This document shows positions 925 through 63,407 of a stretch of 64,000 nucleotides of DNA, in pieces (within the stretch, counting starts at the first letter, position 1; every line of letters starts with the position of its first letter). A program made the position numbers and the translations under genes. Below the pieces are notes generated by a model. It saw only the letters and a program-made list of their open reading frames with translations, made no database searches and had not been told where the DNA came from. Location of the stretch: positions 157,604,001-157,668,000 of the forward strand of contig NC_091476.1 of the NCBI RefSeq assembly GCF_036971445.1. The letters run 5' to 3'. The DNA comes from Narcine bancroftii (Eukaryota).

Positions 925-1047
925 CGGATAGACAACTCCAGCTATCAGTTGGAAGATCAGCCATTGAGGATATATCTCCAATGTGTTTTGATGAGCTCGT
1001 TGGATGCAGTTAAATATTGGATCTTTATCACTGTACATGTTTGGATA
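925..1047 (-). CDS. mgst3b: Microsomal glutathione S-transferase 3b, coding exon 2 (gene continues beyond the left edge)
   Basis: ttctttccag|TAT...CCG|gtaaga; 123 nt translating [41 protein letters not shown], which contains the MAPEG/MGST3 signature [13 protein letters not shown]; phase 0 with exon 1. Confidence 0.95.
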
Positions 1048-4200: not shown

Positions 4201-4450
4201 GAGATGTGGATATCTACAAACATACATGTCATTACATACAACTCTGAAACTGTCCAAAATATGAGCCCTGATTGTTTGTCTTATTCATTTTAACTGAATG
4301 AGCCTAAACTCCAGGTGTTGTTCCCCCACCAAAAGATTTTTACATAATCAGCAACATATGCCATTCTCATGATCTTTTATGAACTGTGAAGACCTCCCTT
4401 TGAGGAGATGGACCCAATGGACCTCTCCTTCAGAGGAAACTTCCTCACTT

Positions 4451-5245
4451 CTTACCTCGACGTTGCACCCCTTACCTTGACGTTGCACCCCTTACCTTGA
4501 CGTTGCACCCCTTACCTTGACGTTGCACCCCTTACCTTGACGTTGCACCCCTTACCTTGACGTTGCACCCCTTACCTTGACGTTGCACCCCTTACCTTGA
4601 CGTTGCACCCCTTACCTTGACGTTGCACCCCTTACCTTGACGTTGCACCCCTTACCTTGACGTTGCACCCCTTACCTTGACGTTGCACCCCTTACCTTGA
4701 CGTTGCACCCCTTACCTTGACGTTGCACCCCTTACCTTGACGTTGCACCCCTTACCTTGACGTTGCACCCCTTACCTTGACGTTGCACCCCTTACCTTGA
4801 CGTTGCACCCCTTACCTTGACGTTGCACCCCTTACCTTGACGTTGCACCCCTTACCTTGACGTTGCACCCCTTACCTTGACGTTGCACCCCTTACCTTGA
4901 CGTTGCACCCCTTACCTTGACGTTGCACCCCTTACCTTGACGTTGCACCCCTTACCTTGACGTTGCACCCCTTACCTTGACGTTGCACCCCTTACCTTGA
5001 CGTTGCACCCCTTACCTTGACGTTGCACCCCTTACCTTGACGTTGCACCCCTTACCTTGACGTTGCACCCCTTACCTTGACGTTGCACCCCTTACCTTGA
5101 CGTTGCACCCCTTACCTTGACGTTGCACCCCTTACCTTGACGTTGCACCCCTTACCTTGACGTTGCACCCCTTACCTTGACGTTGCACCCCTTACCTTGA
5201 CGTTGCACCCCTTACCTTGACGTTGCACCCCTTACCTTGACGTTG
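4451..5245. repeat. 20-bp tandem array, about 40 copies, spanning the mgst3b exon 1/intron 1 junction
   Basis: Unit cgttgcaccccttaccttga repeated essentially without variation; the reverse complement is CAACGTCAAG|GTAAGGGGTG. Confidence 0.98.
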
Positions 5246-5391
5246 TACTTCTTCCTGGCGATGCCCACTTTGACTCCCAGGTAAGCCAGCATGACCCAGC
5301 TGTAAATGAACACCAGGATGACGTAGCCGAACTGAGGGGGGACGAGGTGAGTCGGGTGGGGGGTCGCGCTTTGTGGCGGCACGTACTGCAT
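5236..5391 (-). CDS. mgst3b: Microsomal glutathione S-transferase 3b, coding exon 1
   Basis: gccgccccgATG in good Kozak context; 156 nt = MQYVPPQSATPHPTHLVPPQFGYVILVFIYSWVMLAYLGVKVGIARKKYNVK|gtaagg; resembles the recalled fish Mgst3b N-terminus (FGYVI..YSW.ML.YL.VKVG.ARKKYNVK). Start codon less certain than the exon 3' end. Confidence 0.92.
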
Positions 5392-5619
5392 CGGGGCGGC
5401 GGGTGACCTGGAAGATGTACGCCCTGCAGACTCCGGTACAGACCGAGGCCGCTGATCCCTCCGCGGGTCAAAGGAGCTCGCGGAGGCGCGACCTCCCAGC
5501 GCAACTCCCCCTGGCGTCTCGGGAGCTGGTCATCACCCACCTACATTCCTGCTGCATCCACCCCTCCTGCACATAACCTGTTGGACTTCATTCCTCTTAC
5601 ATGAAAATTATTGCTTTAC

Positions 5620-9409: not shown

Positions 9410-11242
9410 CACAGCACGAATTCAAAAGGATCCCCCACTTCCCAAATAATGTGATATAAACTGGGTGCACAGCCGATGCCGCTTTAGTTGCCCATTCAGA
9501 GCCAGCTCTTCAGCGCTTGACGTCCTGCTTTGCGGAAACTGCCAAAATGTTTGGCCTGGAAGTCAGCCTGAAGAAAACTGAGGTCCTCCATCAGCCAGCT
9601 CCCCACCATGACTACCAGCCCCCCCACATCTCCATCGGGCACACAAAACTCAAAACGGTCAACCAGTTTACCTATCTCGGCTGCACCATTTCATCAGATG
9701 CAAGGATCGACAATGAGATAGACAACAGACTCGCCAAGGCAAATAGTGCCTTTGGAAGACTACACAAAAGAGTCTGGAAAAACAACCAACTGAAAAACCT
9801 TACAAAGATAAGCGTATACAGAGCCGTTGTCATACCCACACTCCTGTTCGGCTCCGAATCATGGGTCCTCTACCGGCATCACCTACGGCTCCTGGAACGC
9901 TTCCACCAGCGTTGTCTCCGCTCCATCCTCAACATCCATTGGAGCGCTTTCATCCCTAACGTCGAAGTACTCGAGATGGCAGAGGTCGACAGCATCGAGT
10001 CCACGCTGCTGAAGATCCAGCTGCGCTGGATGGGTCACGTCTCCAGAATGGAGGACCATCGCCTTCCCAAGATTGTGTTATATGGCGAGCTCTCCACTGG
10101 CCACCGTGACAGAGGTGCACCAAAGAAAAGGTACAAGGACTGCCTAAAGAAATCTCTTGGTGCCTGCCACATTGACCACCGCCAGTGGGCTGGTATCGCC
10201 TCAAACCGTGCATCTTGGCGCCTCACAGTTTGGCGGGCAGCAACCTCCTTTGAAGAAGACCGCAGAGCCCACCTCACTGACAAAAGGCAAAGGAGGAAAA
10301 ACCCAACACCCAACCCCAACCCACCAATTTTCCCCTGCATCCGCTGCAACCGTGTCTGCCTGTCCCGCATCGGACTTGTCAGCCTCAAACGAGCCTGCAG
10401 CTGACGTGGACTTTTACCCCCTCCATAAATCTTCGTCCGCGAAGCCAAGCCAAAGAAAAAAACAGCCAATGGTACTGATCAAGTGACAAATGTGGATGCC
10501 CCCCCCCCGTCACAGCGCGAATTCAAAAGGATCCCTCACTTCCCAAATAATGTGATATAAACTGGGTGCACAGCCAATGGTACTGATCAAGTGACAAATG
10601 TGGATGCCCCTACCCCCCCCCCCCCCCCCCCGCTCTGTCACAGCATGAATTCAAAAGGATCCCCCACTTCCCAAATGATGTGATATAAACTGGGTGCACA
10701 GCCAATGGTACTGATCACTTGTCACCTTTTTGGCTGTAACATTAACAACTAGTGATTCCATTTAAATAAAAATTGTGACACCATTTTATATTTTTGGACA
10801 TTTCATTTAATGCAGAAAAGATTCTTCGTGGGGCGAATCTGAACATGAACGTCGCATCTTCTACATGTAGAATGGGTAGTTGAGAGCGGTGTTCAAATGA
10901 GTGAGGCCAATGGGATGGATGGTTTAGGACTATTTTCCATTGTGTCTAGTTGGAATGGAATAAGACAGTTTAAACCAAAGGGCAGAATGCACTGCTGCAG
11001 TGAAGTCGCTTGGAACAATGGTTTGGATTTTGTGGTTTGCAGTCATGACGCAGTGAAATTGCCAACATCTTTTAGGAATGTTTAAAGACTAGCTGGAATA
11101 TGGCAGTATAATTGGTATGCACCTAGTTTATATAACATTATTTGCGAAATTGGGGATCCTTTTGAATTCGTGGTGTGAGAGAGGGGGTAGGGGCATCCAC
11201 ATTTGTTACTTGATCTTGAGGATAAGGTTTTCAAGAAATCAA
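9324..11242. repeat. Inverted-repeat structure: left arm in three tandem copies (about 110-130 bp each) and one inverted copy at 11112-11242
   Basis: ttgatttcttgaaaaccttatcctcaagatcaagtgacaaatgtggatgcccct..gaattcaaaaggatcc..ataaactgggtgca occurs at 9324-9474, with units repeated at ~10478 and ~10586, and in reverse complement at 11112-11242. Confidence 0.85.
9475..10461 (+). mobile_element. RTE-clade LINE, 5'-truncated, young
   Basis: Uninterrupted 295-aa ORF covering the RT C-terminus/thumb (FTYLG, RLAKANSAFGRL, QLRWMGHV, PKIVLYGEL); 3' end gaagccaagccaaagaaaaaa; TSD ACAGCC at 9469-9474 and 10462-10467. Confidence 0.9.
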
Positions 11243-13210: not shown

Positions 13211-13471
13211 ATATGGAATTGCCTTTAAAGGGAATGGAATCTATTACTTAATTGATAAGGAAATTATTCAGAGGAATGAACAATTGAATTTAAAGAGTCA
13301 ACACAGCTGGAATGTTTCTTGCTCCTTGATTCAAAGAAATGGAGTTGTATTTAGTTTTATCTCTGAATTAGTATAGTACTGTAAAAATAGCAGCCGTTGA
13401 AATTTGGCTGTATTGCACTATATATAGTTAAGTTCCTGTGTTCAATATAATTAAATGTAATTTTATTTCAG

Positions 13472-14302
13472 GTAAAAATAAATTGCACAAAGATCTGGAA
13501 CATGAACAAATGTTTAAAATGGATGTTGGAATGAAATTGGGAACAGATAGATCCAGTGCACAGAAGCAAAAGGCTGAGAAAATAGCTGCTGGCATGGATG
13601 AATTAAGGCTTGCTTCTCCTGATAAGATTCAAAAAAATAAGAGACCATCACGGTCCAGGACTCCTGGTTTCCTGAAATCTAAAATCTCCAGGGCAAGTTC
13701 AGTATCATCTTTGGGAAGCTCTCGATCGTCCTCTGCCAGCTCACGATCGGACTCTGTTTCGTCCTCTTCCAGTAGTTTTCGATCCGATTCAGTGTCCTCT
13801 TCTGGTCGTTCTCGATCAAGTTCTGTTTCTTCAGCTAGTTCTCGATCCAGTTCTGTATCATCATCATCATCTGAAAGCTCCAGATCAAGTTCTGTGTCCT
13901 CTTCAGGCAGTTCCCAATTTGATTCATTGCCCTCTTTAGAAAAGAATCACCCAAGTTCAAATTATGCAACTTTGACTTCAAGGCCCAGATATTCATCACG
14001 AGAGGAGAAATACAGAAGATCAAGGCAAATCCGTTCAAGGTCCAGATCTCGAAGCTTGTCAAAGTCTTGCTACCGACAATCCAGGTATCGTGTGTCCTAT
14101 CGATCACCATTCAGGTACAGATCAAGATCCAGATCTAGATCAAGGTCCAACTTGAGACGTAGAAGATCCCGGTCAGGGTCAAGGTCAAGTTATTCATCTC
14201 GATTTCCGAAGAACTGCCATAATTCGGTGGACAAAACCCAACCATTACACAGAAGAAGTCGAAGCAGATCCTGGGAAAGATCTATTCACTTAACACAAAA
14301 AG
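13472..14302 (+). CDS. RSRP1: RSRP1 coding exon 3 (Ser-rich and RS domain)
   Basis: tttatttcag|GT...AAAG|gtagga; 831-nt open frame with SRSSS repeats and an RS-dipeptide region ending ..RSRSWERSIHLTQK. Confidence 0.93.
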
Positions 14303-14636
14303 GTAGGATATGTTGAAATGGGGATGTGGAGAAAGTAAGATCATAATAGGAGTGGGAGTAACTATTGCCTTGATTTTTGGACTTCAACTAGATTACTATT
14401 AATATTCTGTCTCAATGTTTTCCTACTGGAATGGATCTTTTCATTTGCAAAAGTTGAATGAATTCACTAACTGAGCTGAATGAACTTTCAATTAGTGTGA
14501 GATGATGCCTTGCACTGTAATTACTTTTCCTTTTAACACCATCTACAGTTTTTTATTGCAACACACTTTATTCTTCCACTGCCTTGCTGTATTGTGTAAA
14601 GGTTGAATTGGCTGGATAGCATACAAAACTCAGTTA

Positions 14637-18075: not shown

Positions 18076-19452
18076 TACTTTAATATTGATGTTTCTTGAA
18101 ACCACCTTGACATTGTTTTTAAATAGTGGTCAAAGTAGAACAGTTTTCTAACATCTTTATCAGATAACTGCATTGTCACTTCTAACTAACCTACTTTTAT
18201 TTGTCCCCTTATTCCATTTCTTTAAGACCATCGTGTCACTATTGTAGATTTATTTGTTGGTGGGAAAGAGGCTATTTTTATACTTTCAATTGAACCCAAG
18301 TATTAAAACTACTTTGAACATGGCAAACCCAGAAAGGCCATTATAATGAGAGAAGGTTTTTGTTGTGAATGATTATAACAGAATTTGGGCAATGTGTTGT
18401 GAAACAGTAGTTTTACACCAAGTACTGCTTGTCAAGAGTTCAACACATCTGGTAATTTTCATACTTTTTGCCTACAAAATTATTCTTTTTGACATTTCAC
18501 TAATAATTAGGTAATTTGTGGGTATAATCCAACAATTTATATTGCCAAAAACTGCTTTAACCATTTCCTTTTACTTTATTGGTAGCCACAAGTATTGATT
18601 GGTTTCAAAGTAACAAGCTACAAATCTCGAAAGACCCATTCTTAAAAAGAACAATGGCAGCTACTGTCTCTTGTGTGTGGGGTTGAGTCATGAATAAAAT
18701 ATTGCACCTTTCAATGTGTCACAACCTCTACTTTGAAAGCCATTGATCTTGGGACATTTTCCCCTTTCAGCACTTAGTTTTCTAAATTGAATCCTTGATG
18801 TTGAGTTTGAACAGAGCTCAGATAGCCCATCTTTTGTTTTCTGGTGCAGCTTTGATCAGAGCAGTAGTGTACCCACATCAGGCATTGGTTTGATTATCTC
18901 GTTGTGTAATGGTGATGTGAGTGGAATTGTTTCTTGAATTTGAGATATGATGCATAATTGGATGCAGTATGGAGGGAGCTTCACTTTGCATATTAATACT
19001 GAGCTTGCCCTTGGAGAGCCAGATCTGATATTGGGTTAGAATGCCCATTTGTTACTCAATAAGCAAAGAGAAAATGACTTTTATTCCATGTTTTGTGCAG
19101 AAATGCTATGTGATATGGAATAGAATTTGATTTGCCATCTAGTCTGGAACACAGTTAAAGCATTAAGAACTTCAAATAATAATAATTAATTAAGTCTGCA
19201 TAACACAGATCAGTTCTTGAAACTTACTATCTAGCATTGCCCATTGATAAATAGACTTAATTCCTTCAAGTGCACGGAGGCATATGAAGCAGAGGTTTGA
19301 CTGACTGCTGTTGGATTTGGTATTGTCCATGCATAAACTTTGTTCCAGGATTTTCTTGTCCTCCTAACTTATTCACTGTGTTCCAGGAGGTTTTGAATAT
19401 CAGATCTTTGCCGAAGAAGAGGCCAACGTTTTTTGAAGATAAGTCCATTGGC

Positions 19453-21114
19453 TTTAATAGCCTAGAATATACCGTATCAACATGGCTGCATACAGTAGTA
19501 CATTTCTCCAGTCACTTTTAATAGCCTAGAATATACCGTATCAACATGGCTGCATACAGTAGTACATTTCTCCAGTCACTTTAATAGCCTAGAATATACC
19601 GTATCAACACAGCTGCATACAGTAGTACATTTCTCCAGTCACTTTTAATAGCCTAGAATATACCGTATCAACATGGCTGCATACAGTAGTACATTTCTCC
19701 AGTCACTTTAATAGCCTAGAATATACCGTATCAACATGGCTGTATACAGTAGTACACTTCTCGAATCACTTTTAATAGCCTAGAATATACCGTATCAACA
19801 TGGCTGCATACAGTAGTACATTTCTCCAGTCACTTTAATAGCCTAGAATATACCGTATCAACATGGCTGTATACAGTAGTACACTTCTCGAATCACTTTA
19901 ATAGCTTAGAATATACCGTATCAACATGGCTGCATACAGTAGTACATTTCTCCAGTCACTTTAATAGCTTAGAATATACCGTATCAACATGGCTGCATAC
20001 AGTAGTACATTTCTCCAGTCACTTTAATAGCCTAGAATATACCGTATCAACACAGCTGCATACAGTAGTACATTTCTCCAGTCACTTTTAATAGCCTAGA
20101 ATATACCGTATCAACATGGCTGCATACAGTAGTACATTTCTCCAGTCACTTTAATAGCCTAGAATATACCGTATCAACACAGCTGCATACAGTAGTACAT
20201 TTCTCCTGTCACTTTTAATAGCCTAGAATATACCGTATCAACATGGCTGCATACAGTAGTACATTTCTCCAGTCACTTTAATAGCCTAGAATATACCGTA
20301 TCAACATGGCTGCATACAGTAGTACATTTCTCCAGTCACTTTAATAGCCTAGAATATACCGTATCAACATGGCTGTATACAGTAGTACACTTCTCGAATC
20401 ACTTTAATAGCTTAGAATATACCGTATCAACATGGCTGCATACAGTAGTACATTTCTCCAGTCACTTTAATAGCTTAGAATATACCGTATCAACATGGCT
20501 GCATACAGTAGTACATTTCTCCAGTCACTTTAATAGCCTAGAATATACCGTATCAACACAGCTGCATACAGTAGTACATTTCTCCAGTCACTTTTAATAG
20601 CCTAGAATATACCGTATCAACATGGCTGCATACAGTAGTACATTTCTCCAGTCACTTTAATAGCCTAGAATATACCATATCAACATGGCTGCATACAGTA
20701 GTACATTTCTCCAGTCACTTTAATAGCCTAGAATATACCATATCAACACGGCTGCATACAGTAGTACATTTCTCCAGTCACTTTAATAGCCTAGAATATA
20801 CCGTATCAACACGACTGCATACAGTAGTACATTTCTCCAGTCACTTTTAATATCCTAGAATATACCGTATCAACATGGCTGCATACAGTATACAGTAGTA
20901 CATTTCTCCAGTCACTTTTAATAGCCTAGAATATACCGTATCAACATGGCTGCATACAGTATACAGTAGTACATTTCTCCAGTCACTTTAATAGCCTAGA
21001 ATATACCGTATCAACATGGCTGCATACAGTAGTACATTTCTCCAGTCACTTTAATAGCCTAGAATATACCGTATCAATATGGCTGCATACAGTAGTACAT
21101 TTCTCGAATCACTT
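19453..21114. repeat. 63/64-bp minisatellite, 26 copies, in RSRP1 intron 4
   Basis: Unit tttaatagcctagaatataccgtatcaacatggctgcatacagtagtacatttctccagtcac with recurrent variant units. Confidence 0.97.
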
Positions 21115-46134: not shown

Positions 46135-46336
46135 TTTGTCAAATTACTCTATTACCTTGCCTCTGGATATTTTTTTTACCGCATTATACACATTGAGCTG
46201 TTAAAAAGTGTGCTGAGAATCACAGAAAGATCAGTGTTTGTCAAATTACTCTATTACCTTGCCTCTTGATATTTTTATTAACCGCATTATACACATTGAG
46301 CTGTTAAAAAGTGTGCTGAGAATCACAGAAAGATCA
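46135..46336. repeat. Tandem duplication of about 102 bp
   Basis: tttgtcaaattactctattacc...cacagaaagatca at 46135 and again at 46237. Confidence 0.9.
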
Positions 46337-47470: not shown

Positions 47471-47837
47471 GGTGCGTGCTGCAAGGGTCCAAGGCGTTGA
47501 GTGGTGCGACCACCTCTTGTGACAGCCTTCTGAACTAAAGGTGACAAGGGCTCATGCTGGAGAACGTCGGCCGCCTCCGTTGCACTCGACCACAACCATC
47601 TGCAGAACGTGCTGGTTGAACCCTTGAGGTGCTGAAGTTGTCTGAACAGAGAGTGCTGGAAGTGCCCAGCAGGTCAGGCAGCGGCTGGAGGGTGGGGGTT
47701 GCTTCCTGACCAAAACAAATTGGGGATTATGATGGACAATTCCAAGCTGAACGCAAAGTGTTGCTGCCTCACGTAGGAAGTTGGAGAGACATTCAATGAA
47801 CTTTTATTGAGTTTAGTAGGTTTAATGTGATGCTGAT

Positions 47838-48640
47838 GTCAACCAGTTTACCTATCTCGGCTGCACCATTTCATCAGATGCAAGGATCGACAATGAGATA
47901 GACAACAGACTCGCCAAGGCAAATAGCGCCTTTGGAAGACTACACAAAAGAGTCTGGAAAAACAACCAACTGAAAAACCTCACAAAGATAAGCGTATACA
48001 GAGCCGTTGTCATACCCACACTCCTGTTCGGCTCCGAATCATGGGTCCTCTACCGGCATCACCTACGGCTCCTAGAACGCTTCCACCAGCGTTGTCTCCG
48101 TTCCATCCTCAACATCCATTGGAGCGCTTTCATCCCTAACGTCGAAGTACTCGAGATGGCAGAGGTCGACAGCATCGAGTCCACGCTGCTGAAGATCCAG
48201 CTGCGCTGGGTGGGTCACGTCTCCAGAATGGAGGACCATCGCCTTCCCAAGATCGTGTTATATGGCGAGCTCTCCACTGGCCACCGTGACAGAGGTGCAC
48301 CAAAGAAAAGGTACAAGGACTGCCTAAAGAAATCTCTTGGTGCCTGCCACATTGACCACCGCCAGTGGGCTGATAACGCCTCAAACCGTGCATCTTGGCG
48401 CCTCACAGTTGGCGGGCAGCAACCTCCTTTGAAGAAGACCGCAGAGCCCACCTCACTGACAAAAGGCAAAGGAGGAAAAACCCAACACCCAACCCCAACC
48501 AACCAATTTTCCCCTGCAACCGCTGCAATCGTGACTGCCTGTCCCGCATCGGACTTGTCAGCCACAAACGAGCCTGCAGCTGACGTGGACTTTTTACCCC
48601 CTCCATAAATCTTCGTACGCGAAGCCAAGCCAAAGAGAGA
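47838..48640 (+). mobile_element. RTE-clade LINE, 5'-truncated, young
   Basis: Near-identical to 9658-10455, with one frameshift near 48410. Confidence 0.9.
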
Positions 48641-48677: not shown

Positions 48678-50810
48678 TTTGAGTTCAGATTTATTGTCCG
48701 AGTATATAAATGACACCCTAAGATTCTTTTTTTTTTGTGTGTGGGCGAGGCACTTATTAATAGTGCAAAAAAAGATTGCACTATTGTTATGCCTCACCAG
48801 CAGCAATTGAAAGAGATATAAATAAATGGGTTAAGTTTAACTCAAAAAATTTATTAGCAATTGGCCATAATATGATTATCTCCAACCTAAGCCGTTATGG
48901 CAACAATATAGTAACAATGTGTATGTGAAAAAAATACTCAGACCATTACAGTCTAAGCCCAAAATAAACTCCCAAAACAAAACCTCAAGTTAGTCTCATC
49001 AAGTAAGTCAGTCAAAAGAACAGTCCACAGAATCTGCTCTCCAGGTTTTAATGTGTTAGTTCAGTTGTGCACTGGTCTTTGAGTTGAATGTGGAGAGAGA
49101 TGACTTATCACTGAGCAGACTTACAACCTTGGCGGGTGAATACAGGAAACTTTCCTTAGTTTCTCGTGTGGTAGCGACCACCTTCAGTTTTCTCTCAAGG
49201 GAGTTTCTCACTAGTCAATAGCATGAAGTCTGCATCTCCGAAACCCTCTTTGGGGTTAGATCAGGTGACCCTCTGCCATACGGACTGTGTTAGTTCAGTT
49301 GTGCACTGGTCTTTGAGTTGAATGTGGAGAGAGATGACTTATCACTGAGCAGACTTACAACCTTGGCGGGTGAATACAGGAAACTTTCCTTAGTTTCTCG
49401 TGTGGTAGCGACCACCTTCAGTTTTCTCTCAAGGGAGTTTCTCACTAGTCAATAGCATGAAGTCTGCATCTCCGAAACCCTCTTTGGGGTTAGATCAGGT
49501 GACCCTCTGCCATACGGACTTCTCTGCCAAAACCCTGCCTTGGGTTATACCAAATAACTTTTGTCACACAAAGTCCTCTTCTCGAAAGGGGACTGGAGAA
49601 GCATAGGTTAGACACACACTCTGGAAATTAGAGTGTAAAATTTGCTGTCAGAGTAGCAATGCTGTCACTGCAAATAGAGCAGCTCAGCATCTTGCCTTTT
49701 GGCTGAAGCTGCCAGGTGAACACACTGATAGCTTGTTCCTCAGTGCGTTGGATTGTTTAACTACCACAGCACGCGTCTTCAGCACTCCTGATTGGAGGAG
49801 AGGGGTAGACAACAGCGGGCGAGCCCACTGGTTTCAACGTGCGGCTCTCATGTTCCACACAGTTGTTCACTCTCCCAGCTTGCTACTCTAGTGTTCCACA
49901 CAGCACATGCTCCTTTCTCCCGCTGCACAGTCAATCACGACCCCTGGTCAGAAATAAAGCTGACCATGGTCCATAACTGTTTACATGTAAACAGATAATG
50001 AATGTAAACAAACCAACTGCAATACAGAGAAAATTTAAAAAAAAGTGCACAAGTAAGAGTCCCTATTGAGTTTGTCATTGAGGAGTCTGATGGTGGAGGG
50101 GTAGCAGCTGTTCCTGAACCTGGTGGTGCAAGTCTTGTGGCACCTGTACCTCTTTCCTGACGGCAGCAGCAAGAACAGATTATGTGCTGGATGGTGTGGA
50201 TCCTTGATGATTGCTGCTGCTCTCTGACGGCAGTGTTCCCTGTACATTTTACCTGTGATGTCATGGCCTGTGTCCACTACTCTTTAGAGGGCTTTACACT
50301 CAGGGGTATTGTTGTCCCCATACCAGACCATCATGCAGCTGGTCAGCCTACTTTCCACTGCACATCTGTAGAAATTTGCCAATGTTTCTGGTGCCTTTCC
50401 AGAAACCTCTGCCAACTCCTGAGGAAGTAGAGGCACTGATGTGTTTCATGATCCTCCGAGATAGTGACTCCCAAGAACTTAAATTTGCTCACCCTCCCCA
50501 CCTCTGATCCACCAGTAATCACTGGATTGTACACCTCTGGCTTTCTCTTCCTGAAGTTAACAATTAGCTCTTTAGTTTTGGTGACATTGAGTGCAAGGTT
50601 GTTAGTGCACCATTCAACCAAGTTTTCAATCTCCCTTCTGTGTGGTGACTCATCACCTTTCTTTATACAGCCCACTACAGTGGTATCCTTGGCAAATTTG
50701 TAGATGGTGTTATTGTCATACTGAGCCACACAGTCGAAAGTATAAAGTGAGTAGAGCGGGGGCTAAAAATGCAGTCCTATGGTGTTCCGGTACTGATGGA
50801 GATTGCTTGA
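48678..50810 (-). mobile_element. Rex1/Babar-like LINE fragment split by an LTR-like insert
   Basis: NTIYKFAKDTTVVGCI..DES..RREIENLVEWC..NLALNVTKTKELIV and LLPSGKRYR..TTRFRNS.YP; the 3' end lies at 48678-48784. Confidence 0.8.
48785..49977. mobile_element. Solo LTR-like insert with an internal 234-bp tandem duplication
   Basis: Starts TGTTATG and ends ..CATAAC; interrupts the Rex1 3' UTR; 49052-49285 is duplicated at 49286-49519. Confidence 0.6.
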
Positions 50811-57559: not shown

Positions 57560-60500
57560 GGGAGGTGTGGCAAGATGGCGTAGAGGGAAGACGTGTAGTT
57601 CCACCTTTCCCCAGTTAGACTTATACATATCCAATTTTAAAACTTGTAAAAGTGGTTAAAAATAGTTTTTACAGACTTTGGAATAGTGGAGGATTGAAAT
57701 GGCTACAAACGTGAAGAAATCAAAAGCTCAATTGCAAAAGAAATGACCTTATATAAGTGTTGAAAAATCGAGGCCTACCTACCAAGTTGAAGCCATGGAG
57801 TTATCGATTGGAGCTCCCAAGCCTCAGAGGACTCCTGCCCGGCTAAGTATTATGCCGGCGCCGATCACGCGTTCGCAAGATAGTGCCGGTTCAGTGACAA
57901 GCTCAGCCAGCCCTGACCTCACATGCCTGTGAACCCAGGTGCGTGGGCGGATCAGCTGAGTGAGGACAGACTCGTGAGCCCGCAGTAATTCCTGGTGGTC
58001 CAGGGGCGCGCAGTATAGCGTCAGAAGACGCACCTGTGCGGTCAGTGACTTTGCCGGGCATGTGCGGTGCATCGCGGGTCTGTGAGTTATTGGAAAAGGT
58101 GTGGGCTGTGGGGGAGCCCGAAAGATGGCGGGCTGATGAGGTCGCCGCACTGTCGATGGGTGTCCAGACCCGCAGCTTCACTGGAAGAGGAGCCACTGCG
58201 TTAGGGGAGGAAGAGAGCTCAACGATACTGGAATTAACACAGGAAGAAATGGGGACTGAGACTAGAGAAGGTAGGCCTCAAGGGGAAGTGATGGAACCTG
58301 GACTGTATTTTGTGTTTACAATATTGGAAGGAATTGTTCATCAAATGGAAAACATGTCAATGCAGATGTCTATTCAGATAAACCAAGGATTTATGGAAGT
58401 GAAAACTAAACTGAATAATGTGTGAAGAAATGACTTCTATGAAGAAAGATATGACTGTAGTTAAAAGTGATGTTAGCAGATGTATAAAAACAGTAGATAC
58501 TGTACAGGATAATCTTTTAAAAATTGAAGAAGCTTTTTTTGAATAAGAATTAAGCAGAGCGAAATAGAGAAAAAGTGGAGGACTCTTTCGTGGACTAGGG
58601 GGATTCAGAAGAAGGAATTATTGTAGATTGATTCATTAGAGAATCAAGATCGAAGAAAAAATGTAAAAATAGTAGGTCTTCCAGAAGATATGGAAGGCTC
58701 AGATCTGGTAAAATTTTAAAAGAAATAGATTCGTGAGGTACTGGGCAAGGAATTTTTTCCGGATGGTCTCGAGTTGGATCAAATGCATAGAGCATTGAGG
58801 AAAAAACCGTTTCCAGGTCAACCACCGAGGGCAGTTCTGATTCATTGTTTGAAATATCAAGATAGAGAAATGATATTACGAGTTGTGGTGCAGAAGCCAT
58901 GGCAAAATCAGACTCCAATGATGGTTCAAAATAACAGAGTGTTTTTCTATGCAGATTTGAGTCAAGAAATTTTTAGAAGGCGCCGAGAATTTAATTCAGC
59001 TAAAGAAATGTTGTGGCGAAAGGGTTACAAGTTTGCCTTTCATTACCTGGCTGTACTTAAAAGTTTTTTATGGAAATTTTCAGTCTCAACTTTTTGAAAA
59101 TGATCATAATGCATTAATTTTTGCTAATTCGTTGCCAGATTTGCGAGGAAATGGTCGGTCACCATTATTGTCGGAAACACGGAAAGAAAGGAAAGAAGGT
59201 TGAATTTACGCAAAGTCTTCTTGATATTGAAGACCCGGAACAATCAATGGGATTGGAATCACTGTGTTGAATATGTCTGAATAATTACTTTGTGAAAGTC
59301 TGATTTGATGGGGGGGGGGGGCGGGGCGGGGTGGATGACACTGAGACCTGTTAGTCATCTGCCACTAGTGGGTTTTACCACACCCAGATTTTTAGGGAGT
59401 TACTACTTTTTAGTAGTTTACTGAGGGGAAGTTTATATATATTTATGTTTTTGTGGTATTTTTATATTGGGGGAGGGTTTAGAATATTTAGGGAATTAGA
59501 AAGGGGAGTAATATTTTATAGTAAAGTTTTTACTGAAATGTCTAATTTGAACTTTGCAACTTTTAATGTGCAAGAATTGAATAATCATGTTAAGCGTAAA
59601 CGGGTATTGGCTTATATAAAAAAAAATGGAAGTCGATATTGCTTTTTTTCAAGAGACACATTTGTCTGAAAAAGAACATATGAAATTGAAGAGAGATTGG
59701 GTTGGTCATGTATTTTCTTCTTCTTTTAATTCCAAGGCGAGAGGAGTAGCAATCTTAATTCATAAGAAATTACCATTTGAATTAGAATCCTTTGAAGGTA
59801 ATGCAGGGAGGGTTTTGAAGGTGAATTGTAAATTTTTTGCTGAATCATGGACTTTGTCAAATATCTACGCACCAAATGTGGATGAAGAAAGGTTTATGTC
59901 GGAGGCTTTTTTTCTTGTTAAATCAGGCCAAGGAAAATATTTTGGTTGGGGGAGATTTTAACTGTGTTTTAGACTCTTTGTTGGAACGGTCTCCGAAAAG
60001 TATAATGAAATCAAAGATGGCAATACAAATAGGGGCCTTGATGAAAGATTTGAATTTAATTGATATTTGGAGGATAGTAAATCCTACAGAGAAAGATTTC
60101 TCCTTTCATTCATTTAGACATGATTCATTTTTAGAATATATATTTACAAGGTAGAGTACTCCAAGCCAAATATAAAAGCCGGGTCATATCGTATTATTCT
60201 AATTTGTTTTTCTCTTGGGCAAGTCTGGAAGTCATGCAATTGTCTTATAGATGGTGGCTTAATACAATGCTGTTAAAGAACCAGAATTTGTTACTTTTGT
60301 TAAGGAGCAGATTGCTTTATTTCTGGCTGAGAATATTAATACAGTAAGTAGTACTTTTGTATTATGGGATGCTTTGAAAGCATATTTCTGTGGGCAAATT
60401 ATTAATTATACTACGAAAGTTAAAAAAAAACAATATGTGGTGGAAAGCTTAACATTGGAGAAACAAATTACTGAGTTGGAGAAGGAATTTCAGAAAGATG

Positions 60501-63407
60501 TTACAGAAGATAAAAAGGCAGCTTTAGTGAAGCTGAAACTACGTTATGATACACTACAAACCTATCAGTATGAGCGTTTAATCAGTCGATCTAAGCAACG
60601 TTATTATGAATTAGGTGAGAGGGCTCATAAGGTGTTAACATGGTAATTAAAAACAGAACAGACATCGCTAATTATTAATGCTGTTAAAAAGAAGTCAATA
60701 GTTACTGATAAACCTCAGGAAATTAATGACCAGTTTTATTCATTTTATCAACAATTATATACTTCTGAGGGAAAGCAGGAAGCTGGTTCTATTGATTCTT
60801 ATTTATCTAAATTAAATTTACTTGTTTTAGGGGAGGAGGAGGTTAGGGAATTAGAAGCTCCGTTTACAGATTTTGAGATTAAAGAAGCTATACAAGAGAT
60901 GCCGAATGGGAAGTCACCAGGGGATGATGGATTTTCAGCTGAATTTTATAAAGTATTTTATGAAGATTTATCCTCCGTATTTGGAGATGTTCTACAGCAA
61001 ATAACTGAGGATCAGGTGTTACCAGAAACTTGTTCGAGTGCTATAATTACTGTGATTTTCAAGAAAGATAGGGATCCATTGAAAATATCTTCATATAGGT
61101 CTACTTCTTTACTAAATGTAGATTATAAAATTATGGCGAAAGTATTAGCGAATAGACTTGCTAAATATTTACCTCAGTTGATACATGTAGATCAAGCAGT
61201 TTTTATTAAGGATAGAAATGCATGTGATAACATTCTAAGATTGATCACATTGGTCAATGCATCTAGACAGCAACCCAACCACTGGTTGCACTAGATGCGG
61301 AAAAAGTTTTTGATGGGGTTGAATGGAATTTTTTATTTAAGGTGTTAGAGAAGAGTAATTTTGGCCCTTATTTTATTGGCTGGGTTAAAGCTTTATATAA
61401 AAACCCAATTGCTAGGGTGGTGGGAAATGGTCAAACTTATTTACCATTTAAATTAACGTGGTCAACTCGGCAAGGTTGTCCATTATCACCAGCCTTGTTT
61501 GCATTGGCTATTGAACTGTTAGCTTAGACAATACAACAGAATGATAAGATTAAAGGGATGAGAATTGCAGATGATGAATATAAGTAATTTATTTGCGGAT
61601 TATTTGTTGGTCTATTTGACAGAACTGGAGCAGACTTTGAAATATTTGCAAGATTGCTCACTGAAATTTGGGAAGTTATCTGGATATAAGGTAAATTGGG
61701 ATAAGAGTGAAATATTACCAGTTGGGGAAGGAGACTATTCGGAATATAAAAATATTATAAAATTGAAATGGTCAGATAGAATTAAATATTTGGGAGTAAT
61801 AGTAAGTGCAGATTATCAATCTTCATATAAATTAAATTATGCTTCTTTATTAAAAAGGATTAAAATGGATTTCATTAAATGGAAAGATCTTCCGTTAACG
61901 TTAATTGGTCAAGTAAATTGTATTAAAATGAATATTTTTCCTTGAATCCAATATTTGTTTCAATCGATACCTTGTTTACTTTCAAAGAGTTTCAGGATTT
62001 GAATAGAGTGGTACAGGAATTTTTATGGAAGGGGAAATTAGCATGAGTAGCTTTACATAAACTTACATGGAAATGTGAATTAGGTGGTCTTCAATTACTT
62101 CATTTTCAAAATTATTACGAAGCAGCTCAGTTGAAATTTGTTAGTAGATAGATGGATATGGACCAACCTCCGAGTTGGGCGAAGGTAGAAATGGCTTGTA
62201 TTTCTGAAGTTGAGGTACAACAGTTTATATCTAAATGGAATATGAATTTATTGCGGGAATGTAATATGCCAGTATTAAAACACTTATTAAAGATATGAGG
62301 TAAAAGAAATATGGTTTTAGGGTCGAAGGGTAACCTATCAATTCAAACTCCATTATACCATAATCAACTTATTCCCTTTTCAATGTTTAATAATCATTTA
62401 AAGAGATGAAATTTTAAGGTTATAAGGATAGTTCAGGATTGTTTTAAAGAAGGACAGTTCCTTTCCTTTAATCAATTGAGGGAGAAATTTGATATATCTG
62501 TAAATTCTTTATTTGTATACTATCAACTCAGAGCTTTGATAAAAGATAATTATGGTAAAGAGATGAATTTACCTATGTTGATGAAATTTGAGTCTTTGAT
62601 TTCCTCTATACCAAAGAAAGGTTATATTTCGGTAATGTATCAATTTTTACAAGATAGTATGGATAAACTGGAATGGGAGAAATCTAGGCTTAAATGGGAA
62701 GGTGATTTAACTTATATTTTTCCTGAAGACAATTGGGAGGTTATGTGTCACGACGGTGTAACTAAATTGATGAATGTAAGCTATGGAATGGTTATTTATA
62801 ATTTTTTACATCAGCTATATTTGACTCCAGAGAAATTTAAAAAATATGGGTTTAGCAATTCGGACTCTTGTTTTCGATGTGGACTATGTACTGGAACATA
62901 TTTACATTCTGTTTGGTCTTGAGTTAAAGTACAACCATTTTGGGAAGGAATTAGATTGGTCTTGGAAAAATTATTTAAGATTAAACTACCACTAGACCCA
63001 TTGATTTTTTTGTTGGGCTATATGATTTCTTTGAAGGGATTGGGGTTGGATAAATTTCAAATTGCATTTGTACGTTTAGCGTTATCTGTAGCATGAAAAT
63101 GTGTAGCCAGTACTTGGAAAGATAATGTGGAGATTAATATAGTACGTTGGTATAATGAATTAAGAGCTTGTATTCCGTTGGAAAAAAATTACATGTAACT
63201 TGCATGATAATTATTGCTTCTTTGTTAATATGTGGTCTTCTTATTTGGAATATATGAATTTGAAAATACTTTGAAATATTCTATATATTCTATATATTCT
63301 GTTTTAAGGGTAGGGAGGGTTTTTCTTTATGTATCTAAAAATTTCTTGCTGTTATTTGATTGTATTTTGTTTTTACAAAAATCTTTTTAATAAAATTTGA
63401 AAAAAAA
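57560..63407 (+). mobile_element. Full-length decayed L1-clade (L1/Tx1) LINE, about 5.85 kb
   Basis: 5' gggagg..CAAGATGGCG; ORF1 remnants (DQMHRAL..PRAVL..DLSQE); ORF2 from 59538 with APE endonuclease (FQETH, NIYAPN, GDFN), RT (KSPGDDG, TRQGCPLSP, LFAD) and C-terminal C-x2-C; A-rich tail; TSD GTGAGAGATA at 57549-57558 and 63409-63418; many stops and frameshifts. Confidence 0.93.

Follow-up and report, generated by a model that had tools for sequence, protein, structure and literature searches.

Forty reiterated splice donors at the first exon of mgst3b in Narcine bancroftii: assembled transcripts leave the exon at the most upstream one

Introduction

How is one 5' splice site chosen when forty stand in a row? 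The question is raised by mgst3b of Narcine bancroftii, in which the border between exon 1 and intron 1 belongs to a 20-bp tandem repeat that carries a splice donor in every unit. The locus lies in a stretch of 64,000 nt (NCBI RefSeq assembly GCF_036971445.1, contig NC_091476.1, positions 157,604,001 to 157,668,000 of the forward strand), hereafter the window, to which all positions refer; the gene is read from the minus strand, and donors are numbered from the exon. A sequence-only reading of the window had proposed that the array might act as a copy-number rheostat on splicing and nonsense-mediated decay (NMD) or as a U1 sink, or else that the gene is crippled or that some mechanism enforces use of the first donor. 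Here we ask which donor is used, what the others would encode, whether the array is real and how it might have arisen.

Results

On the minus strand, 5245-4451 reads as 39 identical copies of CAACGTCAAGGTAAGGGGTG followed by the variant CAACGTCGAGGTAAG (Table 1), and TRF reports a period of 20, 39.8 copies and a 99% match. The earlier description of the unit as the end of exon 1 (10 nt) joined to the start of intron 1 (10 nt), giving 39 identical donors and a terminal variant, was borne out on the sequence. Its extent was only partly right: the 39 identical units stand, but the last unit reaches 4446, which makes 40 full units, and the terminal donor 9-mer occupies 4458-4450. The 40 GT donors have their last exon base at 5236, 5216 and so on to 4476 (AAG/GTAAGG), and at 4456 (GAG/GTAAGA). 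Searching the 3.33-Gb assembly for the unit returned 39 matches, all at the mgst3b array, and none for a reversed control; a transposon or dispersed origin was rejected, as the unit is present at this locus alone. A canonical G-quadruplex was likewise rejected: each unit holds one GGGG, the gaps are 16 nt and the pattern is unmatched.

Table 1 Features of the mgst3b locus in window coordinates (a slash marks the exon/intron border)
Feature	Position	Strand	Details	Evidence
mgst3b exon 1	5236..5505	-	5' UTR to at least 5505; coding 5391-5236 (52 codons, ends in phase 0)	
Authentic donor 1	5230..5238	-	AAG/GTAAGG, used in assembled transcripts	contigs of X5, X6
Likely slippage seed	5247..5253	-	AAGAAGT just upstream of the array	flank comparison
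Identical 20-bp units	4466..5245	-	39 units; 38 pseudo-donors the same as donor 1	
Diverged last unit	4446..4465	-	3 differences in 20 (17/20 match); donor GAG/GTAAGA at 4456	
In-frame TAA	5212..5214	-	included by any of donors 3-40	
mgst3b exon 2	925..1047	-	123 nt; acceptor ...tttctttccag, donor CCG/GTAAGA	
TGA reached via donor 2	957..959	-	105 nt upstream of the last exon junction	

The gene that carries this array is intact and single-locus. It has four exons with GT-AG borders, two of them in the window (coding 5391-5236 and 1047-925) and two more to its left. Splicing from donor 1 rebuilds a 150-aa protein exactly (P0001, labelled by its source as microsomal glutathione S-transferase 3b of Narcine bancroftii), to which the frame 5391-5236 is 100% identical. 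P0001 contains a MAPEG domain (PF01124, E 1.9e-22) and shows 81-88% identity with seven proteins from sharks and rays that their sources label mgst3b; the lysine that precedes the exon 1 junction is conserved in all seven orthologues. An exon-by-exon genome search (E <= 0.001) found the four mgst3b exons and neither a second nor an intronless copy, the copy count from such a search being a lower bound. The proposal that the gene is crippled is contradicted by its intact frame, by the identity to the orthologues and by deep spliced contigs (below). We also considered exon 1 as an internal exon, given acceptor-like text near 5330, and rejected this because the orthologues have the N-terminus in common and, in X5, the contig extends without splicing to 5505. 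As a side observation, in the CIQRAH motif near residue 69, P0002 and P0004 carry Leu or His, while P0001 and the other eight proteins listed carry Arg.

Donor 1 alone yields the intact protein; as had been predicted, all downstream donors lead to premature stops. Translation confirmed the arithmetic for donor 2, use of which adds 20 nt and shifts exon 2 into the TGA at 959-957. It also confirmed that the TAA at 5214-5212 is in frame for donors 3 and beyond, on the basis of six of these 38 donors (3-6, 39 and 40), the others containing the same prefix. An in-frame stop thus lies upstream of donors 3-40, whereas donor 2 has none upstream.

Of 15 listed sequencing runs, four were compared at the level of contigs with 5196-5555, a segment that includes 2.5 repeat units. 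The sequence-only reading had asked whether raw reads would reveal an assembly artefact, and word depth in the DNA run X1 indicates that the array is real. In X1, the repeat collapses into two loop contigs, one of 47 bases at a depth of 147.1 and one of 33 bases at a depth of 150. The contig that enters the array stops at 5216 (depth 4.5). The exit contig, with a depth of 4.3, holds the variant base together with downstream flank, and this loose end is all that shows of the array's far side. The assembly leads one to expect a ratio of loop to flank depth of 37.85; the observed ratio is 32.7-34.9, or about 33-35 passes, summed contig depth being a rough measure of copy number. That the array, or most of its length, was created by the assembler might be argued from the perfect identity of 39 units and from the possibility that X1 is the source data of the assembly. 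Against this stand the word depth in X1, the match of the entry and exit contigs to prediction, and the closed repeat loop that recurs in X5, X6 and X15. We therefore regard an artefact as excluded for practical purposes, its probability being close to nil.

X15 comes from a different study and bears a different organism label. It contains a loop contig of 50 bases without differences (depth 22.4) and 102 bases of the upstream flank, again without differences (depth 3.3). Its loop-to-flank ratio is about 7, compared with about 34 in X1, although the flank depth is low with holes and exon 1 is uncovered. This hints at an array of at least about three units in the differently labelled organism, and perhaps of far fewer than 40. 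Its presence there means that the unit survived some split between lineages, an outcome that neutrality permits but does not predict.

Two further runs, X5 and X6, are two samples of one study that we presume to be RNA, a guess backed by a spliced junction. In both, the main contig (depth 1287.8 in X5 and 1271.9 in X6) fits the segment up to exactly 5236, and its loose letters past that point belong to exon 2, bases 1-30; the X5 contig spans 5236-5505 and continues into exon 2. The junction from 5236 to 1047 was present in the contigs of both presumed RNA runs examined. Altogether, assembled transcripts splice at donor 1 into an intact message, as shown at the contig level, in line with the earlier alternative that first-donor use is enforced. 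The general expectation, also raised earlier, that competing donors closer to the acceptor are frequently used does not hold here, the contigs leaving exon 1 at donor 1.

The contigs also limit what the other donors can contribute. All that X5 and X6 show of the array is a closed loop of 50 bases, at depths of 21.7 and 35.9. Since a transcript using donor n contributes n-2 passes to loop depth, donors 3-40 jointly account for at most 1.7% and 2.8% of the steady-state message if all of it used donor 3, and for 0.09-0.15% if use is spread evenly; this ceiling covers donors 3-40, as a donor 2 message contains no 31-mer that lies entirely within the array. The loop depth is fully accounted for by 0.045-0.075% unspliced RNA or DNA. 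Contigs drop rare forms, and steady-state RNA hides message removed by NMD.

What might distinguish donor 1 from the others? Predicted pairing with U1 is identical for donors 1-39 (-10.0 kcal/mol), and 8 of the 9 consensus positions are matched. Predicted openness is 0.03-0.05 for donor 1 and 0.09-0.15 for internal donors, with donor 40 highest, and the folding z is 0.30. We therefore rejected masking of the downstream donors by RNA structure, because donor 1 is predicted to be less open than the internal donors; predicted folding does not favour donor 1, which fits a rule of position. Donor 1 is also preceded by real exon sequence that includes GAAGAA, an enhancer motif, whereas later donors are preceded by GGGG.

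The flanks suggest how the array may have grown. The word AAGAAGT upstream of the array recurs at 4453-4447 in the last unit, in the 20-base register. In our model, an ancestral single border would have carried AAGAAGT at both ends of a 20-mer, and slippage between these words, 20 bases apart, would have duplicated the border. The two copies would then have diverged at three bases, and the exon-side copy would have been amplified recently and homogenised to give 39 identical units. The last unit is probably what remains of the original second copy, which homogenisation passed over. This scenario predicts that an ancestral single unit at the start of intron 1 would begin GTAAGAAGTG.

The genome of Narcine bancroftii holds many near-perfect minisatellites whose units resemble donors. 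A pattern of three AGGTAAG words gave 1,555 genome matches against 7,895 for the reversed control; the control being commoner, donor-like arrays are therefore not enriched. Among the 1,555 matches, 100 were listed, falling in 13 loci, and 8 of the 11 loci fetched are arrays of at least 10 units, three of them at a 99% match. At none of the 11 did inspection of short open frames by eye find an evident coding exon upstream of the first donor-like site (the true start excluded for L016 and L022). This suggests that the genome readily makes donor-like arrays and that the one in mgst3b may have happened to begin on a real donor. Minisatellites of 18-22 bp with donor-like AG/GTAAG and 19-55 copies were seen at L016 396-1433, L018 630-969, L019 624-1143 and L020 630-1699.

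Other features of the window deserve mention. A 63-bp minisatellite of 26 copies at 19452-21114 (plus strand) holds an acceptor-like TTTCTCCAG in each unit and begins inside a 44-codon frame, without a Pfam match, that follows an acceptor-like ttccag at 19386; the frame is perhaps the last exon of a neighbouring RS-rich gene. At 13432-14316 (plus strand), a 294-codon open frame rich in Ser/Arg repeats, also without a Pfam match, is probably an exon of an RS-domain gene that lies head to head with mgst3b. A perfect 234-bp tandem duplication at 49052-49520 and a 97% duplication of 103 bp at 46135-46336 may each be either recent or an assembly artefact. The open frames at 9460-10404, 47826-48608 and 58729-62922 presumably resemble pieces of LINE retrotransposons.

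Discussion

We consider it very probable that the array is a minisatellite that grew from the exon 1/intron 1 border, that the first donor is the one spliced, and that the enzyme is likely little affected. In this model, modelled on human F7, donor 1 would be made first and would be the sole donor beside real exon sequence, so that exon 1 would commit to it, and the other 39 donors would be removed with the intron. Any leak to donor 2 or beyond would carry a premature stop and would presumably be cleared by NMD; the array may be tolerated and persist because such clearance lowers its cost. Counting against so neutral a reading, the donors with their 8/9 consensus come near the range in which competition appeared in F7, and a leak at donor 2 is plausible.

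Were such a leak sizeable, donor 2 and its followers would take a substantial share of splicing, NMD would degrade their messages, and the output of MGST3b would be set by stress or by the length of the array. Every downstream donor does give a premature stop, and the donors are near consensus, with the predicted U1 duplex given above. In the parts of the literature available to us, CBS and 6-16 splice at additional donors (PMC1557585), the title of a cited paper connects reduced activity with the CBS VNTR (PMC2630376, reference list), and stress activates latent donors behind in-frame stops (PMC3510495); copy number may also differ between X1 and X15, a weak point. However, donors 3-40 are confined to the small steady-state share given above, the main contig is unbroken from donor 1 to exon 2, and in F7 the choice of donor did not vary among constructs of 1-6 and of 8-12 repeats, as far as the accessible part of that paper goes (PMC1557585). 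Such a rheostat is therefore unlikely. The narrower idea that donor 2 and later donors are used before NMD acts, in a manner sensitive to stress and length, such that array length tunes the glutathione transferase between related rays, appears to us improbable.

The array might instead act on the promoter side, its U1 sites and CpG-bearing units, less than 1 kb from the start, raising transcription or blocking early cleavage. U1 sites can affect transcription; the array extends a CpG-rich first-exon region (observed/expected 0.86, against 0.23 in the remainder of intron 1), and the intron contains four AATAAA words farther along. Yet one donor suffices in ordinary genes and the array bears no sign of selection, and we hold this to be very doubtful. 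A U1 sink, as the sequence-only reading had suggested, is implausible, because the U1 snRNP is very abundant and the array offers only 40 sites per nascent transcript.

On the preferred reading of a border minisatellite spliced at its first donor, mgst3b is a clean natural substrate for the rule of the most upstream donor, and a harsher one than F7 given its 40 copies, 8/9 consensus and 20-nt spacing. With a stop upstream of donors 3-40 and none upstream of donor 2, one minigene could separate choice by position from suppression based on stops. The array adds another vertebrate lineage to a known class and opens no new question; beyond F7, it offers the modest extras of stronger donors, tighter spacing, visible traces of a probable slippage origin and a unit shared with a differently labelled organism. 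It would matter more if copy number or stress altered the enzyme level, for which CBS is already a reported precedent in the sources available to us. Our literature search found no paper joining any two of mgst3b, Narcine and minisatellite, and this instance seems undescribed in the literature searched, while the class is already in print.

The class is that of border-spanning minisatellites, known in human F7, CBS, 6-16, LMNB2 and PDGF from the part at our disposal of Borensztajn et al. 2006 (PMC1557585). The mgst3b array shares its hallmarks: the units run head to tail, the first contains the border that is used and the donor is reiterated unchanged; moreover, the authentic site dominates and a homogenised core ends in a diverged border unit. 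The closest parallel is the 37-bp VNTR of F7 intron 7, in which the first unit likewise spans the border and identical pseudo-donors follow. According to the accessible sections, F7 minigenes always chose the most upstream intact donor, although the pseudo-donors are functional, and this choice was unchanged by 1-6 or 8-12 repeats, mutated G triplets or predicted structure; competition came solely from perfect-consensus sites, and the authors argued against stop codons as the reason for first-donor use (PMC1557585). The mgst3b contigs show the same preference for donor 1. The two arrays differ in unit and copy number (20 bp and 40 copies against 37 bp and 5-9), in donor strength (8/9 against 6/9) and in setting, the first exon of a cartilaginous fish gene against an internal exon in human.

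In donor number, mgst3b is nearest to 6-16, with which it shares a long ladder of reiterated donors: the introduction of PMC1557585 lists 25 pseudo-sites in intron 2 of 6-16 and 15-20 units in intron 13 of CBS. As described in that same excerpt, CBS and 6-16 use one or two extra donors, whereas LMNB2 and PDGF use none (PMC1557585). The mgst3b contigs, unlike CBS and 6-16, show no extra donor, donor 2 lying beyond contig resolution. For CBS, a title in the reference list of PMC2630376 ties the VNTR to lower enzyme activity. More broadly, human repeats that alter splicing have been catalogued as spl-TR, to judge from the portion available (PMC10078293). Latent 5' splice sites that lie behind in-frame stops, the subject of "suppression of splicing", are reported in the available text to be activated by stress (PMC3510495); donors 3-40 of mgst3b likewise follow an in-frame TAA, whereas donor 2 does not. 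Finally, the amphioxus "mirages" of Adh3 and the globins BflGb6 and BflGb9, as reported in the part available, leave splicing undisturbed, are unstable in length and have border units spared from homogenisation (PMC3087553). Like mgst3b, they are tandem duplications of a border, with units from 10 bp up and concerted evolution that spares the border units; length instability, shown for the mirages, is for the mgst3b array a hint.
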